In this document: positions 46-24,452 of the stretch, piece by piece
Layout: every line of letters begins with the position of its first letter
How positions within the stretch are numbered: position 1 is the stretch's first letter
Assembly (NCBI RefSeq): GCF_003334785.1
Contig: NZ_QOWV01000008.1
DNA: 64,000 nucleotides
Strand: one strand, 5' to 3'
Source: Escherichia coli
GTDB lineage: Bacteria; Pseudomonadota; Gammaproteobacteria; Enterobacterales; Enterobacteriaceae
Program-made: the position numbers and the translations under genes
The notes under the pieces: model-generated
Databases searched by the model: none
What the model saw: the letters and a program-made list of their open reading frames with translations, nothing else
Told to the model about the DNA's origin: nothing

Positions 46-144
46 GCCTGATGCGCTACGCTTATCAGGCCTACGAAAATCTTGCAATGTATTGAATTTT
101 CATGATTTTGTAGGCCGGATAAGGCGTTCACGCCGCATCCGGCA
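46..144. repeat. REP/BIME-type extragenic palindromic units (two inverted copies)
   Basis: gcctgatgcgctacgcttatcaggcctac and gtaggccggataaggcgttcacgccgcatccggca motifs. Confidence 0.6.
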
Positions 145-156
145 AGAAGCTATAAG

Positions 157-189
157 AAAAGGGCGGAGATCATCTCCGCCCTTTTTATT
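157..189 (+). terminator. Rho-independent terminator downstream of gyrB
   Basis: GC hairpin gggcggag..ctccgccc followed by T-run. Confidence 0.6.
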
Positions 190-263
190 TCTGCAATCCG
201 CAATTATCATCCCGCAAATCTATACTTTTTGGGTCAACACGTAACGCTTTACAGGTGATTATC

Positions 264-662
264 ATGGGGCTTTTTGATGAAGTTGTCGGTGCCTTTCTGA
301 AAGGCGATGCGGGGAAATATCAGGCTATTTTAAGTTGGGTTGAGGAGCAGGGCGGCATTCAGGTGCTGCTGGAAAAACTGCAAAGTGGCGGCTTAGGGGC
401 CATTCTCTCAACCTGGCTGAGTAATCAACAGGGCAATCAATCGGTTAGTGGCGAGCAACTGGAATCGGCGCTCGGCACAAATGCGGTGTCCGATCTCGGG
501 CAAAAACTTGGCGTGGATACCAGTACAGCTTCCATTTTACTGGCAGAACAATTGCCGAAGATTATTGATGCGCTCTCACCGCAAGGTGAAGTGTCACCAC
601 AAGCCAATAACGATCTGCTTTCCGCAGGCATGGAACTGCTGAAAGGGAAACTCTTCCGCTAA
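264..662 (+). CDS. yidB: DUF937 family protein YidB
   Basis: ORF 255..662; ATG at 264 gives the 132-aa MGLFDEVVGAFLKG... product. Confidence 0.85.
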   Translation: MGLFDEVVGAFLKGDAGKYQAILSWVEEQGGIQVLLEKLQSGGLGAILSTWLSNQQGNQSVSGEQLESALGTNAVSDLGQKLGVDTSTASILLAEQLPKIIDALSPQGEVSPQANNDLLSAGMELLKGKLFR

Positions 663-776
663 GCAAAAAGGGAGCACGCAACGCGCGTTGCATCCCCCTT
701 TTCCCTCGGGTGTTGTACTGATTTTTGAGCGGAATCGCGTTAGCATGGGTCAGGAACCAATCTACCTGGGGAACTC

Positions 777-1589
777 ATGGCTATTAAACTCATTGCTATC
801 GATATGGATGGCACCCTTCTGCTGCCCGATCACACCATTTCACCCGCCGTTAAAAATGCGATTGCCGCAGCTCGCGCCCGTGGCGTGAATGTCGTGCTAA
901 CGACGGGTCGCCCGTATGCAGGTGTGCACAACTACCTGAAAGAGCTGCATATGGAACAGCCGGGCGACTACTGCATTACTTATAACGGCGCGCTGGTACA
1001 GAAGGCCGCTGATGGTAGCACCGTGGCGCAAACTGCTCTCAGCTATGACGACTATCGTTTCCTGGAAAAACTCTCTCGCGAAGTCGGTTCTCATTTCCAC
1101 GCCCTGGACCGCACCACGCTGTACACCGCCAACCGTGATATCAGCTACTACACGGTGCATGAATCCTTCGTTGCCACCATTCCGCTGGTGTTCTGCGAAG
1201 CGGAGAAAATGGACCCCAATACCCAGTTCCTGAAAGTGATGATGATTGATGAACCCGCCATCCTCGACCAGGCTATCGCGCGTATTCCGCAGGAAGTGAA
1301 AGAGAAATATACCGTGCTGAAAAGTGCGCCGTACTTCCTCGAAATCCTCGATAAACGCGTTAACAAAGGTACGGGGGTGAAATCACTGGCCGACGTGTTA
1401 GGTATTAAACCGGAAGAAATCATGGCGATTGGCGATCAGGAAAACGATATCGCAATGATTGAATATGCAGGCGTCGGTGTGGCGATGGATAACGCTATTC
1501 CTTCAGTGAAAGAAGTGGCGAACTTTGTCACCAAATCTAACCTTGAAGATGGCGTGGCGTTTGCTATTGAGAAGTATGTGCTGAATTAA
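777..1589 (+). CDS. yidA: HAD-superfamily (Cof-type) sugar phosphatase YidA
   Basis: 270-aa ORF with IAIDMDGTLL HAD motif I and C-terminal GDxxND motif. Confidence 0.9.
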   Translation: MAIKLIAIDMDGTLLLPDHTISPAVKNAIAAARARGVNVVLTTGRPYAGVHNYLKELHMEQPGDYCITYNGALVQKAADGSTVAQTALSYDDYRFLEKLSREVGSHFHALDRTTLYTANRDISYYTVHESFVATIPLVFCEAEKMDPNTQFLKVMMIDEPAILDQAIARIPQEVKEKYTVLKSAPYFLEILDKRVNKGTGVKSLADVLGIKPEEIMAIGDQENDIAMIEYAGVGVAMDNAIPSVKEVANFVTKSNLEDGVAFAIEKYVLN

Positions 1590-1594
1590 TCTGT

Positions 1595-1627
1595 GGGCGG
1601 GCAAACAGCATAAACGCGTTTGCCCGC
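1595..1627. terminator. Bidirectional hairpin between convergent yidA and yidX
   Basis: gggcgggcaaac..gtttgcccgc inverted repeat. Confidence 0.5.
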
Positions 1628-1634
1628 TTACTGA

Positions 1635-2291
1635 TTATTGGTTTACTGCATATACAACCAGAAATTGCAGCGGTGCAGTAATGATGTCCAGCGTAACAGT
1701 CACTGGCAGTAATGCTGCGGAAACACCATCCGGAATGCCTCTGGGTGAATAGTATTCATAAAATCGCACTTTAAATGGATGGTAGAACGCCATCACCTTT
1801 GAGTAATCCATGTTTTTATTTTTCTCATGGATTGTGCCTTTTAGGTTTTCCAGTGACCTGGTACAGTGTTGAACACCACAGGCAAAACCATAATGCGTTG
1901 CCAGTGCCTTTTCTTCTTCGTTATTCCAGTAGTAGTAAAGCGATATTGTGCCGGTAAATTTCTTTTTCCCCGCATTTAAAACAAATCTTGCGTCATCGGC
2001 AACCTGAATATTGTGCCGGTTAAGTGCTGGATCATTGAGCATCTTAACGATGTCATCGGCACCATCAGTGATAAGGTAATCCAGCGATTCCCCTACAAAA
2101 ACATAGCCTTTTGTTCCATTACTATCTTTTGCCTGCGATAGCCCAGTGATGGTGTCTGACTGCGATTGATACTTTCCTGAACTACCCTTTGCGGTATGGG
2201 AAACCAGAGCATACGAGATACAGCCTGAAAGCATCAGCGCCAGTGGGAATAAACCGGCAACCTTAAAAAATCCCTTAAAATTCAACTTCAT
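1635..2291 (-). CDS. yidX: Putative lipoprotein YidX
   Basis: ORF 1635..2408; internal Met MKLNFKGFF... followed by lipobox-like LSGC. Confidence 0.75.
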
Positions 2292-2568
2292 GATTAATCC
2301 TTTAAACGAGTAGCTAAGCCGTTGAAAGCATACTCTTCTTTCCCTCCTGTTTAGCGCCTGATATCCCTTTTCAGATTTCTGCCCGACGCATGTCATTTTT
2401 TTATGCATTGTTCTTTTTGTGATCTAAATTGTAGTACAACAATATAAGTTTGTACTACATTACACGCACGGCAAACGCGAACGTCATCACGCTGGTACTA
2501 CAAAGTTGCCGCGTTATGCATCGATCGGGGTAAAGTAGAGAAGAACATACAGAGCACAAGGACTCTCC

Positions 2569-3258
2569 ATGACTCTCAATAAAACCGATCGCATTGTCAT
2601 TACGCTGGGTAAACAGATCGTTCACGGCAAATACGTGCCAGGCTCGCCGCTTCCGGCTGAGGCGGAACTCTGTGAGGAGTTTGCAACCTCGCGCAACATC
2701 ATCCGTGAGGTGTTCCGTTCGCTGATGGCGAAGCGGCTGATTGAAATGAAACGTTATCGCGGGGCGTTTGTGGCACCGCGTAACCAGTGGAATTACCTCG
2801 ACACTGACGTACTGCAATGGGTGCTGGAAAATGACTACGACCCACGGCTTATCAGTGCCATGAGCGAAGTGCGAAATCTGGTGGAACCGGCGATTGCCCG
2901 TTGGGCAGCAGAGCGCGCGACTTCCAGCGATCTGGCGCAGATTGAATCGGCGCTGAACGAGATGATTGCCAACAATCAGGACCGCGAAGCGTTTAACGAA
3001 GCGGATATTCGCTACCACGAGGCGGTGCTGCAGTCGGTGCATAACCCGGTGTTACAGCAACTTAGCATTGCGATCAGTTCGCTGCAGCGGGCGGTTTTTG
3101 AACGAACCTGGATGGGCGATGAGGCCAACATGCCGCAAACGCTCCAGGAACATAAGGCGCTGTTCGATGCGATACGACATCAGGACGGCGATGCGGCAGA
3201 GCAGGCGGCGCTTACCATGATCGCCAGCTCGACACGAAGGTTAAAGGAAATCACATGA
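2569..3258 (+). CDS. dgoR: GntR-family galactonate operon repressor DgoR
   Basis: 229-aa ORF with N-terminal GntR-type HTH region, immediately upstream of dgoKAD. Confidence 0.9.
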   Translation: MTLNKTDRIVITLGKQIVHGKYVPGSPLPAEAELCEEFATSRNIIREVFRSLMAKRLIEMKRYRGAFVAPRNQWNYLDTDVLQWVLENDYDPRLISAMSEVRNLVEPAIARWAAERATSSDLAQIESALNEMIANNQDREAFNEADIRYHEAVLQSVHNPVLQQLSIAISSLQRAVFERTWMGDEANMPQTLQEHKALFDAIRHQDGDAAEQAALTMIASSTRRLKEIT

Positions 3259-14124: not shown

Positions 14125-17445
<3,321 letters not shown>

Positions 17446-17611
17446 TTTAATATCCCTCCGGCGAATTATGCTCACAACCTGAACTTAACAGAAAACAATC
17501 CGTTCAGGGATACGACGTTTGTATTTTAAGAATCTGACTGCCTGACCCGACGCATTTTACCTCTCCCTATATTCATGCGTCCGGGACATAAACATAAATA
17601 AGGGCTATGAG

Positions 17612-19564
17612 ATGAATTCGTTACAAATCTTGAGTTTTGTCGGTTTTACGCTGCTGGTGGCGGTGATCACCTGGTGGAAGGTCCGCAAAACAGATACCGG
17701 ATCGCAACAAGGCTATTTTCTTGCCGGACGTTCACTAAAAGCGCCGGTTATTGCCGCTTCGTTAATGCTAACCAACCTTTCCACGGAACAACTGGTCGGC
17801 CTTTCCGGGCAGGCCTACAAAAGCGGCATGTCGGTGATGGGCTGGGAAGTGACTTCAGCGGTGACGCTGATCTTCCTCGCGCTAATCTTTTTACCGCGCT
17901 ATCTGAAGCGCGGCATTGCCACCATCCCCGATTTTCTGGAGGAACGTTATGATAAAACGACGCGTATTATCATCGACTTCTGCTTCCTAATTGCCACCGG
18001 CGTCTGCTTTCTGCCGATTGTTCTCTACTCCGGCGCGTTGGCGCTCAACAGCCTGTTTCACGTCGGGGAATCGCTACAGATTTCTCACGGTGCGGCTATC
18101 TGGCTACTGGTAATTTTGCTTGGTCTGGCGGGAATTTTGTATGCGGTGATCGGCGGACTGCGCGCAATGGCAGTGGCGGACTCCATCAACGGTATTGGGC
18201 TGGTTATCGGCGGGTTGATGGTGCCGGTATTTGGCCTGATCGCGATGGGCAAGGGCAGCTTTATGCAGGGCATTGAGCAACTCACCACCGTTCACGCCGA
18301 GAAATTAAACTCAATCGGTGGCCCGACCGATCCCTTGCCGATTGGCGCGGCATTTACCGGTTTGATTCTGGTGAACACCTTTTACTGGTGTACAAATCAG
18401 GGCATCGTGCAACGCACGCTGGCGTCAAAAAGCCTGGCGGAAGGGCAAAAGGGGGCGCTGTTAACGGCGGTGCTGAAAATGCTCGACCCGCTGGTACTGG
18501 TGCTGCCAGGGTTGATTGCGTTTCATCTGTATCAGGATTTACCGAAAGCCGACATGGCCTACCCGACGCTGGTCAATAACGTTCTGCCAGTGCCAATGGT
18601 GGGTTTCTTCGGCGCGGTGTTATTTGGTGCGGTGATCAGTACCTTCAACGGCTTTCTGAATAGCGCCAGTACGTTATTCAGTATGGGTATTTACCGTCGC
18701 ATCATTAACCAGAATGCCGAGCCGCAGCAGCTGGTCACCGTCGGGCGCAAATTTGGTTTCTTTATCGCTATCGTTTCGGTGCTGGTCGCGCCGTGGATCG
18801 CCAACGCGCCGCAGGGGCTGTATAGCTGGATGAAACAGCTCAACGGCATTTACAACGTGCCGCTGGTTACCATCATCATTATGGGCTTTTTCTTCCCGCG
18901 CATCCCGGCGCTGGCGGCAAAAGTAGCGATGGGGATTGGCATAATCAGCTACATCACCATCAACTATCTGGTGAAGTTCGACTTCCATTTCCTCTATGTG
19001 CTGGCCTGTACGTTCTGCATCAACGTGGTCGTGATGCTGGTGATCGGTTTTATCAAACCGCGCGCCACGCCGTTCACCTTCAAAGATGCGTTTGCGGTGG
19101 ACATGAAACCGTGGAAAAACGTCAAGATCGCGTCAATTGGCATCCTGTTCGCGATGATTGGCGTCTATGCCGGGCTGGCTGAATTCGGCGGCTACGGTAC
19201 GCGCTGGTTAGCGATGATCAGTTATTTCATTGCCGCCGTAGTGATTGTCTACCTGATTTTTGACAGCTGGCGGCGGAAGGTATTCGCTTTAATTCCGCCT
19301 ACACCTGTTCACCGGTTTGTACGCCTGCACGGGCCGGACTATTTACCGGTATCTACGCTAACCAGTCCGGCCCGTGGACCAACAACGTCGCGCCAGGCAA
19401 AAACATCTCCACTATGGGGCGCTACTTTAAGGATGCCGGCTATCACACCTGTTACATCGGCAAATGGCATCTCGACGGTCATGACTATTTCGGCACTGGC
19501 GAGTGTCCGCCGGAGTGGGACGCTGATTACTGGTTCGATGGGGCGAACTATCTTAGCGAACTGA
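17612..19564 (+). CDS. yidK: SSS-family solute:sodium symporter YidK with aberrant 3' extension into the yidJ region
   Basis: 650-aa ORF; first ~550 aa are a typical SSS membrane protein, the tail is an out-of-frame reading of the sulfatase gene. Confidence 0.7.
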   Translation: MNSLQILSFVGFTLLVAVITWWKVRKTDTGSQQGYFLAGRSLKAPVIAASLMLTNLSTEQLVGLSGQAYKSGMSVMGWEVTSAVTLIFLALIFLPRYLKRGIATIPDFLEERYDKTTRIIIDFCFLIATGVCFLPIVLYSGALALNSLFHVGESLQISHGAAIWLLVILLGLAGILYAVIGGLRAMAVADSINGIGLVIGGLMVPVFGLIAMGKGSFMQGIEQLTTVHAEKLNSIGGPTDPLPIGAAFTGLILVNTFYWCTNQGIVQRTLASKSLAEGQKGALLTAVLKMLDPLVLVLPGLIAFHLYQDLPKADMAYPTLVNNVLPVPMVGFFGAVLFGAVISTFNGFLNSASTLFSMGIYRRIINQNAEPQQLVTVGRKFGFFIAIVSVLVAPWIANAPQGLYSWMKQLNGIYNVPLVTIIIMGFFFPRIPALAAKVAMGIGIISYITINYLVKFDFHFLYVLACTFCINVVVMLVIGFIKPRATPFTFKDAFAVDMKPWKNVKIASIGILFAMIGVYAGLAEFGGYGTRWLAMISYFIAAVVIVYLIFDSWRRKVFALIPPTPVHRFVRLHGPDYLPVSTLTSPARGPTTSRQAKTSPLWGATLRMPAITPVTSANGISTVMTISALASVRRSGTLITGSMGRTILAN

Positions 19565-20658
19565 CGGAAAAAGAGATTAGCCTGTGGCGCAATGGCCTAA
19601 ACAGCGTCGAAGATTTACAGGCGAACCATATCGACGAAACCTTCACCTGGGCGCATCGTATCAGCAATCGGGCGGTGGATTTTCTGCAACAGCCTGCGCG
19701 CGCAGACGAGCCTTTCCTGATGGTGGTTTCGTATGATGAGCCGCATCACCCGTTCACCTGTCCGGTGGAGTATTTAGAGAAATACGCTGATTTTTACTAC
19801 GAGCTGGGCGAGAAAGCACAGGATGACCTGGCTAACAAACCGGAACATCACCGCTTATGGGCGCAGGCGATGCCATCGCCAGTCGGTGATGACGGGCTTT
19901 ATCACCATCCGCTCTATTTTGCCTGTAATGACTTTGTTGATGACCAAATCGGACGGGTCATCAATGCCTTAACGCCAGAGCAACGTGAAAATACGTGGGT
20001 TATTTATACCTCCGATCACGGCGAAATGATGGGCGCACATAAGCTGATCAGTAAAGGGGCGGCGATGTATGACGACATCACCCGCATTCCGCTGATCATC
20101 CGTTCGCCGCAAGGGGAGCGGCGACAGGTCGATACGCCAGTCAGTCATATCGATTTACTGCCGACAATGATGGCGCTGGCAGATATTGAAAAACCAGAGA
20201 TTCTGCCGGGGGAAAATATCCTTGCCGTGAAAGAGCCACGCGGCGTGATGGTGGAATTTAACCGCTACGAGATTGAGCATGACAGCTTTGGCGGTTTTAT
20301 TCCGGTGCGTTGCTGGGTGACGGATGACTTTAAACTGGTACTCAACCTCTTCACCAGTGATGAACTTTACGATCGCCGTAATGACCCAAATGAAATGCAT
20401 AACCTGATCGATGATATCCGTTTTGCAGACGTTCGCAGCAAAATGCATGACGCCTTATTGGATTACATGGACAAAATTCGCGATCCGTTCCGCAGTTACC
20501 AATGGAGTCTGCGTCCGTGGCGTAAAGATGCACGGCCGCGCTGGATGGGGGCGTTTCGTCCACGTCCACAAGATGGCTATTCGCCAGTTGTACGCGACTA
20601 TGACACCGGCCTACCGACACAAGGGGTGAAGGTGGAGGAGAAAAAACAGAAGTTCTGA
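19264..20658 (+). pseudogene. yidJ: Sulfatase YidJ, 5'-truncated (no in-frame start upstream of the CTPAR active-site motif)
   Basis: Sulfatase frame opens right after a TGA at 19261..19263; first ATG is at 19414, downstream of the CxPxR motif. Confidence 0.65.
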
Positions 20659-20665
20659 CGATAAT

Positions 20666-20690
20666 GCCCGCTGATGATCACCCGGCGGGC
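20666..20690. terminator. Hairpin between convergent yidJ and yidI
   Basis: gcccgc..gcgggc inverted repeat. Confidence 0.45.
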
Positions 20691-20704
20691 ATTATTCAGG
20701 CTGC

Positions 20705-21154
20705 TTAAACCAGTGAACCGCCGGTCAGGAAGGAAAAGATAAGGAATATCAGCAAAATGCTGCACACGATGCCGATACCAAAAAGCAAGGTATGGAAAGC
20801 CAGCGTCCCGCCGCCAAAAACCAGCGCGCCGCGAATGCCCCAGCGATTTTCCTTACGCATACCGCCAATAAATGCGCAAAGTAGCGCAGCAATGGCCAGT
20901 GCGATACCGCTTTGATTGAGGATTTTATCGACATCTACGTCCTCTTTTTTCTCCACGGTGGTAATTTTTTCGCCTTTTATTCCGGCGAGAAGACCTCTTT
21001 TAATTTCAGCCGTTTTGTCCGCCACGATGCTTTCAAACGTTGGCGGTGGTGCGGAGAAAGGGCCGAATGAAAAGTGGATAATCCCCATCATTAAAGCGAT
21101 GGCACCGAACAGCATGCCCAATGAACTGATTTTATTTTGAGCTATGATACCCAT
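20705..21154 (-). CDS. yidI: Inner membrane protein YidI
   Basis: ORF 20705..21262; internal start MGIIAQNKISSLG...; 149 aa. Confidence 0.75.
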   Translation of the reverse strand: MGIIAQNKISSLGMLFGAIALMMGIIHFSFGPFSAPPPTFESIVADKTAEIKRGLLAGIKGEKITTVEKKEDVDVDKILNQSGIALAIAALLCAFIGGMRKENRWGIRGALVFGGGTLAFHTLLFGIGIVCSILLIFLIFSFLTGGSLV

Positions 21155-21261
21155 CTGACCTCCTTGTAGCGGATGGCAAAAGCATATCAGGAAACGGGCG
21201 GACGAAATTCTTAAAAAAACCGCTAAAGGTAGAGCGTTAGTGAAATTGCAAAGGAGCAACA

Positions 21262-21609
21262 ATGAAAATTTCCCGCCTCGGAGAAGCGCCTGATTACCGC
21301 TTCTCGCTGGCTAATGAGCGTACTTTTCTGGCGTGGATCCGTACTGCACTAGGATTTCTGGCGGCGGGGGTTGGGCTTGATCAACTTGCGCCAGATTTCG
21401 CCACGCCCGTCATTCGCGAACTGCTGGCGTTGTTGTTGTGTCTGTTTTCCGGCGGGTTAGCGATGTATGGCTACTTGCGCTGGTTACGCAATGAAAAAGC
21501 GATGCGTCTGAAAGAGGACCTGCCCTACACCAACAGCTTATTAATCATTAGCTTAATATTGATGGTCGTGGCGGTGATCGTTATGGGACTGGTGTTGTAT
21601 GCCGGATAG
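21262..21609 (+). CDS. yidH: DUF202 inner membrane protein YidH
   Basis: 115-aa ORF, hydrophobic. Confidence 0.8.
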   Translation: MKISRLGEAPDYRFSLANERTFLAWIRTALGFLAAGVGLDQLAPDFATPVIRELLALLLCLFSGGLAMYGYLRWLRNEKAMRLKEDLPYTNSLLIISLILMVVAVIVMGLVLYAG

Positions 21610-21961
21610 CCGCAAAGCCAGACGCATTGCCGACCCAGGACTGCAGCCGGAGCGCACATCACTGGCGTGGTTTCGTACCATGCTGGGCTACGGCGCGTTG
21701 ATGGCGTTGGCTATCAAACACAACTGGCACCAGGCGGGCATGTTATTCTGGATTTCGATTGGCATTCTCGCCATCGTGGCGCTGATCCTCTGGCACTACA
21801 CCCGTAATCGCAATTTAATGGATGTCACGAATAGCGATTTTTCCCAATTTCACGTAGTCCGTGACAAATTTTTGATCTCCCTCGCGGTGTTATCTCTCGC
21901 AATACTGTTTGCTGTAACGCATATACATCAACTTATCGTATTTATTGAGAGAGTCGCATGA
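21599..21961 (+). CDS. yidG: Inner membrane protein YidG
   Basis: 120-aa ORF overlapping yidH stop. Confidence 0.8.
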   Translation: MPDSRKARRIADPGLQPERTSLAWFRTMLGYGALMALAIKHNWHQAGMLFWISIGILAIVALILWHYTRNRNLMDVTNSDFSQFHVVRDKFLISLAVLSLAILFAVTHIHQLIVFIERVA

Positions 21962-22455
21962 CAGGAAGTCAGGTCATTGATGCTGAAGAGGACAGGCATA
22001 AACTGGTTGTAGAGTACAAGGATGCTCTGCAACCTGCCGATTTTTATCACAATTTCAAACAGCGGGGCATCCGCTCCGTACAGCTCATTCCCTATCTTGA
22101 ATTTGATGACCGGGGCGATCTGACGGCCGCTTCGGTGACAGCAGAGCTGTGGGGGAAATTTTTAATTGCCCTGTTCGAGTGTTGGGTGCGGGCAGATATC
22201 AGTCGTATCTCGATTGAGCTTTTTGACGCCACCTTACAAAAATGGTGTGGCAGCGAAAACCCGCAACCGCGCTGTGACTGCCAGGCGTGCGACTGGCATC
22301 GCCTGTGCCCGCACGCTCGGCAGGAGACGCCAGACAGCGTGCTTTGTGCGGGCTATCAGGCGTTTTATTCTTACTCCGCACCGCATATGCGGGTGATGCG
22401 TGATCTGATAAAGCAGCATCGTTCTCCCATGGAGCTGATGACGATGCTGCGGTGA
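21958..22455 (+). CDS. yidF: Uncharacterized protein YidF
   Basis: 165-aa Cys-rich ORF overlapping yidG stop. Confidence 0.8.
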   Translation: MTGSQVIDAEEDRHKLVVEYKDALQPADFYHNFKQRGIRSVQLIPYLEFDDRGDLTAASVTAELWGKFLIALFECWVRADISRISIELFDATLQKWCGSENPQPRCDCQACDWHRLCPHARQETPDSVLCAGYQAFYSYSAPHMRVMRDLIKQHRSPMELMTMLR

Positions 22456-24270: not shown

Positions 24271-24366
24271 ATATTTGGACAAAACGCAAACTGTGATCGA
24301 TACTCAACTATGCACTAAATACGTCAAAATTCGTGCCGAAATTGCGCGTTCTGCGCGGAACACGTA

Positions 24367-24452
24367 TACTTTCAGTGTTGACATAATACAGTGTGCTTTG
24401 CGGTTACCAGCCGCAGGCGACTGACGAAACCTCGCTCCGGCGGGGTTTTTTG
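24367..24452 (+). ncRNA. istR: IstR-1 antitoxin sRNA (approximate boundaries)
   Basis: tatact -10 element upstream; body is near-complementary to a copy at 24108..24135 inside the tisAB leader; ends at hairpin plus T6. Confidence 0.45.

Follow-up and report, generated by a model that had tools for sequence, protein, structure and literature searches.

A 159-bp deletion at the yidK-yidJ boundary of Escherichia coli with one copy of an 8-bp direct repeat at its junction

The yidK-yidJ operon of Escherichia coli, which in its K-12 type encodes an SSS-family symporter and a cytoplasmic S1 formylglycine sulfatase, has a shortened form in the stretch of 64,000 nucleotides analysed here (the window). 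Exactly 159 bp over the yidK stop and the yidJ start are absent. We are all but certain that this is a real, heritable chromosomal deletion between two copies of the octamer CTGGCGGC, and that the probable loss of function is ordinary gene decay. The short allele is an already catalogued, lineage-restricted and ordinary pseudogenising deletion, and it probably represents the loss of a dispensable, uncharacterised operon for uptake and desulfation. The features of the locus in the window are the following.

16552..17445, minus strand: yidL, the divergent AraC-type regulator of the locus, intact (ML35 annotation, L003 338-1231 with an offset of +16214, and a complete ORF read in the window)
17612..19564, plus strand: yidK-derived ORF of 650 aa (translation)
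17612..19273, plus strand: native part of yidK, codons 1-554 of 571, with all hydrophobic TM-like segments (comparison with SLK172 YidK and hydropathy scan)
19267..19274, no strand: deletion junction, where one copy of the 8-bp direct repeat CTGGCGGC is left (alignment to SLK172)
19267..20658, plus strand: yidJ remnant, codons 35-497 and stop of the S1 sulfatase gene (sequence and SLK172 alignment; labelled 'incomplete; missing N-terminus' by PGAP in ML35)
19274..19564, plus strand: non-native tail of 96 codons and stop, yidJ DNA in the wrong frame (translation and SLK172 comparison)
19318..19332, plus strand: CTPAR (C-x-P-x-R) formylglycine motif, native YidJ residues 52-56 (read from the sequence)
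19414..20658, plus strand: longest yidJ-frame ORF with a canonical start, 414 aa, from native Met83 (ORF reading)
20705..21154, minus strand: yidI, convergent with yidJ (ORF reading and ML35 annotation)

A global gapped alignment of window positions 17000-21500 with the intact allele of SLK172 (L002) gave two blocks, separated by one gap of exactly 159 bp, with four SNPs in all. An earlier note on this DNA had proposed a deletion of about 170 bp, starting from protein lengths of 571 and 497 aa. The lengths were right, as they are those of intact YidK and YidJ in SLK172, and so was the deletion, but not its size. The aligned junction is not identical to K-12-type sequence, from which the 159-bp gap separates it. 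In SLK172, CTGGCGGC is found at 3068-3075 and again at 3227-3234, and the window lacks the 159 bp from 3068 to 3226. The junction falls between window positions 19266 and 19267, and owing to the repeat it can be placed anywhere from there to between 19274 and 19275. One copy of CTGGCGGC is left at this point, no inserted or foreign bases are present, and the alignment is free of gaps on both sides. A matching junction was recovered with MLI104K2 as second reference. The difference was also seen on the scale of the species: with positions 18700-19900 as megablast query, the locus was matched in 5,116 of 5,426 complete E. coli genomes, and all 39 of the 39 sampled full-length matches came in two pieces. 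These spanned 1,359-1,361 bp for a query of 1,201 bp, so that about 159 bp are missing from the window.

The left copy of CTGGCGGC lies near the 3' end of yidK, the right one at yidJ codons 35-37. The deletion took from yidK the last 17 codons (HRHDPAVTFTPDGKDSL) and the stop, from the boundary the 4-bp ATGA overlap, the GGGAAGGA ribosome-binding region and the yidJ ATG, and from yidJ codons 1-34 (MKRPNFLFVMTDTQATNMVGCYSGKPLNTQNIDS). The yidK 3' end and the first 30 or so yidJ codons had indeed been suspected to be missing. The intergenic region that had been listed with them, however, does not exist in SLK172, where the intact genes overlap by ATGA.

The sequence around the junction gives indications of how the segment was lost. 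Only two 8-mers are repeated in the 500 bp examined, and one of them is CTGGCGGC, its copies standing exactly at the ends of the deletion; if the breakpoint were random, junctional microhomology of 8 bp or more would be expected with a probability of about 1e-4. Since the ancestral allele has two 8-bp repeats of which one copy was kept, the junction has the appearance of a scar left by a slipped-mispairing deletion between short direct repeats. The mechanism would be slipped-strand or short-homology recombination between the CTGGCGGC copies. Deletions between short direct repeats by RecA-independent slipped-strand mispairing are known from E. coli, the classic case being the lacI deletion hotspots. 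As in deletions of that type, identical 8-bp repeats flank the lost segment of yidKJ, one copy stays, foreign DNA is absent and the length, of the order of 10^2 bp, is typical. The yidKJ case differs from them in that we infer the mechanism from the scar, and in that a palindrome or hairpin between the repeats was not found. When the intact 187-nt region was folded as single-stranded DNA, no hairpin united the repeats and the fold was no better than those of shuffled sequences (z = +0.37); structure-assisted slippage was dropped on this ground. Rfam and promoter/terminator scans of the neighbourhood brought up nothing relevant at the junction, the istR RNA being the only match. As a separate observation, the left repeat taken together with the preceding G (window 19266..19273 and intact alleles) reads GCTGGCGG and has a single mismatch to the Chi octamer, which is GCTGGTGG. 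We do not claim a functional link of this likeness to the deletion.

It might be objected that the real chromosome contains the 159 bp and that the assembler dropped or collapsed them. Such errors occur at this very locus. In the record of MLI104K2 (L001, NZ_CP116925.1), a 'complete genome' in RefSeq, the 159-bp segment has its second half, at about 3160-3227, smeared into homopolymers (...CCCCGGCCCCAAAAATGGGGGGGGGGTTAGGGGGAAACCCCCGAAAAAAAAAAAAAA...). The segment measures 160 bp there, and yidJ is annotated as frameshifted in consequence. This looks like a consensus or polishing artefact of the record rather than biology. MLI104K2 had looked like the nearest 'intact' relative, with an insert of 160 bp; as this insert is normal sequence garbled by homopolymers, SLK172 was taken as reference instead. 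For the window, however, an assembly or sequencing error has next to no probability. A junction probe matched 45 of the 5,426 complete E. coli genomes in one piece and with 100% identity. It comprised 46 bp centred on the junction, and each half, even counting the octamer common to both, falls short of the 28-bp megablast seed, so that neither half seeds alone. These 45 genomes were produced independently, by many laboratories and on many platforms. The exact 650-aa product was moreover found on at least 1,000 public contigs and the exact 414-aa ORF on 798. A repeat of 8 bp is far too short for assembly collapse, and up to the breakpoint the flanks agree cleanly with those of intact genomes, with 1-4 SNPs. 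On the evidence of these genomes and contigs, an artefact is excluded as a general explanation.

The carriers include ML35, NCTC9087, NCTC9100, O157:H16 98-3133, O2:H16 BA92 and a set of Korean chicken isolates. Their sources range from old collection strains to recent isolates from humans, chicken, swine, dog, crow and vegetables (cucumber, lettuce). Over 17000-21500, ML35 and the window do not differ; of yidL, this range includes no more than the promoter-proximal 446 bp. The allele has already been recognised by annotation. In all five carrier records inspected (ML35, O157:H16 98-3133, Z1323CEC0003, IAL7250 and P377), RefSeq/PGAP treats the two genes as partial pseudogenes, with the label 'incomplete; missing C-terminus' for yidK and 'incomplete; missing N-terminus' for yidJ. 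The ML35 annotations C1I23_RS00115 and C1I23_RS25890, both 'incomplete; partial in the middle of a contig', describe the same allele as that of the window, and we saw no difference between them and it. GenBank and UniRef carry the 650-aa ORF under the ordinary name 'solute:sodium symporter family transporter'. The 650-aa 'symporter' and the 414-aa 'sulfatase-like' ORFs, which automatic gene calling has placed in these databases under normal product names, are to be read as products of a pseudogenised locus, not as natural length variants or a fusion. In a full-text literature search for the two genes, no paper described the allele or a defined function of the operon; yidK is only named among variable 'extended-core' genes (PMC12595684).

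The yidK-derived ORF runs over 650 aa from 17612 to 19564, as the earlier note had stated, in place of the 571 aa of the K-12-type protein. Residues 1-554 are kept, the 17 C-terminal residues are lost and 96 out-of-frame residues are gained. The two reading frames differ (17612 mod 3 = 2 for yidK, 19414 mod 3 = 1 for yidJ) and 159 is divisible by 3; yidK consequently reads out of frame through yidJ DNA for 96 codons. Alignment to the intact alleles thereby bore out the proposed read-through of yidK into a 5'-truncated yidJ. Ribosomes translating yidK would run into the yidJ DNA out of frame and continue for these 96 codons up to the TAA at 19562..19564. The term fusion, which had also been used, holds for one ORF spanning both genes but not for an in-frame YidK-YidJ protein, the frames being 2 and 1. 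We likewise rejected a bifunctional in-frame product, as the frames differ and the tail is without sulfatase sequence. The last 100 or so residues had been described as a low-complexity, out-of-frame translation. Out of frame they are, with 96 aa, but they are compositionally biased rather than truly of low complexity. The tail contains 14 T, 10 P, 10 S and 9 R, has a net charge of +10 and shows no TM-like segment, with a maximum Kyte-Doolittle mean of 1.24 in a 19-residue window. By hydropathy scan, the last TM-like segment of YidK covers residues 530-554 and is retained, and the 17 lost residues form a hydrophilic tail. The native C-terminus and stop codon are absent, in line with the PGAP label 'missing C-terminus'. 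The chimera would comprise the whole membrane domain with a foreign basic tail; its activity is uncertain, and it might still transport.

The yidJ of the window differs from the K-12-type gene by the absence of residues 1-34 and of the start signal. The remnant has neither ribosome-binding site nor start codon. Its frame contains a TGA at 19261..19263, followed by QLAAEGIRFNSAYTCSPVCTPAR, and the first ATG, GTG or TTG after it is the ATG at 19414. This confirmed the earlier reading of the stop and of an ATG located beyond CTPAR, and added that GTG and TTG are missing from the interval as well. The CTPAR motif is still encoded, but upstream of this first usable start. The 414-aa ORF beginning there is devoid of both the metal-binding N-terminus and CTPAR, and no Shine-Dalgarno-like sequence was seen upstream of 19414. 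A TTG or CTG start for a shortened YidJ, which had been thought of, did not hold up: the frame offers no TTG ahead of 19414, and no Shine-Dalgarno sequence precedes the CTG at 19267. This CTG and an ATT at 19282 are the only non-canonical starts upstream of CTPAR. The ATT has a GGAAGG merely 1 nt upstream, and two ATC codons, at 19351 and 19405, are situated downstream of CTPAR. None of these CTG, ATT and ATC codons has a plausible Shine-Dalgarno sequence with suitable spacing, and any product made from them would be without Asp12, so they were discarded as alternative starts.

Asp12 ends a conserved N-terminal beta-strand (native FVMTD12) that is part of the deleted residues 1-34. Sulfatase homologues in the PDB align to YidJ from residue 2, and the conserved motif of PN, hydrophobic strand and Asp lies within these 34 residues. 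In S1 sulfatases the N-terminal Asp, Asp12 in YidJ, is a ligand of the catalytic metal. We infer that the YidJ sulfatase is probably not made and would be inactive if it were. In one carrier, P377 (L008), an A to T change at window position 19414 converts the ATG of the residual ORF to TTG. This fits an absence of constraint on the remnant.

Judged by distribution and coding content, the ancestral allele is the long one: more than 5,000 genomes, in every identity band, have it, and the conserved N-terminus of the sulfatase fold is complete in it, and the short allele is restricted to one flanking haplotype. Over a 21-kb flank, 1-3 SNPs distinguish each of four carriers and three intact genomes from the window, and no SNP separates the four carriers from the three intact genomes. 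This places the deletion on a very common haplotype. A single origin, with the allele fixed in a minority lineage of E. coli, seems the simpler reading. Alternatively, the 8-bp repeats may predispose to slippage, and the 159-bp deletion may have arisen several times. The diverse serotypes of the carriers (O157:H16, O2:H16, NCTC collection strains) would be in line with such a recurrent hotspot, as would the presence of the repeats in the intact alleles examined and the failure of 21-kb-flank SNPs to part carriers from intact genomes, of which BR1220 shows one difference from the window. We nevertheless regard recurrence as unlikely. The carriers examined all have one flanking haplotype in common, on which each shows only 2 private or partly shared SNPs beyond 24747, and carriers dominate the best 21-kb matches, whereas none was seen among the haplotypes of 95-99% identity, which make up most genomes. 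The missing hairpin between the repeats (z = +0.37) speaks against a hotspot, too. The allele may serve as a marker for the E. coli subgroup that includes ML35. The one position at which intact BR1220 differs is 24747, where the window has T and seven of the seven compared genomes (four carriers, three intact) have C. This T is a private or sub-lineage SNP and a possible marker of the source strain within the carrier group.

Could the short allele be functional and selected, either as a working and perhaps altered YidK chimera or as an adaptive loss of the operon? Several observations would agree with this. All TM-like segments of YidK are kept and only the hydrophilic 17-aa tail is swapped, the allele persists from collection strains of the mid-20th century to recent isolates from many hosts, and the 650-aa ORF is conserved exactly on its contigs, at least 1,000 in number. 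A neutral deletion in a successful clone predicts equal persistence, however, and the tail is out-of-frame sulfatase DNA, not a recognisable domain. The substitution in P377 falls in the tail region, which hence gives no sign of constraint. The locus also decays independently elsewhere. In LR-46 (L004, NZ_AP027537.1), a separate 1-bp deletion at about 805, in yidJ codon 33, turns GATAGT into GTAGT. This frameshift, just upstream of the right-hand CTGGCGGC, inactivates yidJ by a second route in an otherwise intact allele. H30 and H40 have split or partial copies of yidKJ, and the megablast search with 18700-19900 gave no match to the locus in 310 of the 5,426 complete genomes. On this balance we hold a functional, selected allele to be very improbable. 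We give equally little credit to non-neutral readings in their wider form, in which the loss of YidK and YidJ was selected in a commensal or environmental lineage, the tailed chimera is altered and selected, or the CTGGCGGC pair acts as a recurrent on-to-off switch of the operon. The allele is one more piece of evidence for a dispensable and repeatedly decaying yidKJ operon, and its significance beyond annotation hygiene is small.

Apart from the missing segment, the locus resembles the K-12-type operon, with the same order yidL / yidK-yidJ / yidI-yidH-yidG-yidF and flanks that are 1-4 SNPs from intact alleles. As yidI is convergent and no gene on the same strand follows yidJ, the deletion is without polar effect on other genes. 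Further along, yidF (21958..22455, plus strand), annotated as 'radical SAM protein', has a length of 165 aa here as well as in every genome compared. Anaerobic sulfatase-maturating enzymes have about 370-410 aa, and YidF may be merely the C-terminal fragment of a maturase. If this reading is true, the yidJ system was already partly degraded species-wide. A gene for a family 4 glycosyl hydrolase (about 15742..16555, plus strand), presumably the glvG of K-12, lies upstream of yidL; all related genomes inspected, with and without the deletion, have it annotated as a frameshifted pseudogene. The istR match in the Rfam scan corresponds to a full-length copy of this Hfq-binding antitoxin RNA (24322..24451, plus strand; RF01400, 150 bits), which adjoins tisB as expected for this region of E. 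coli.
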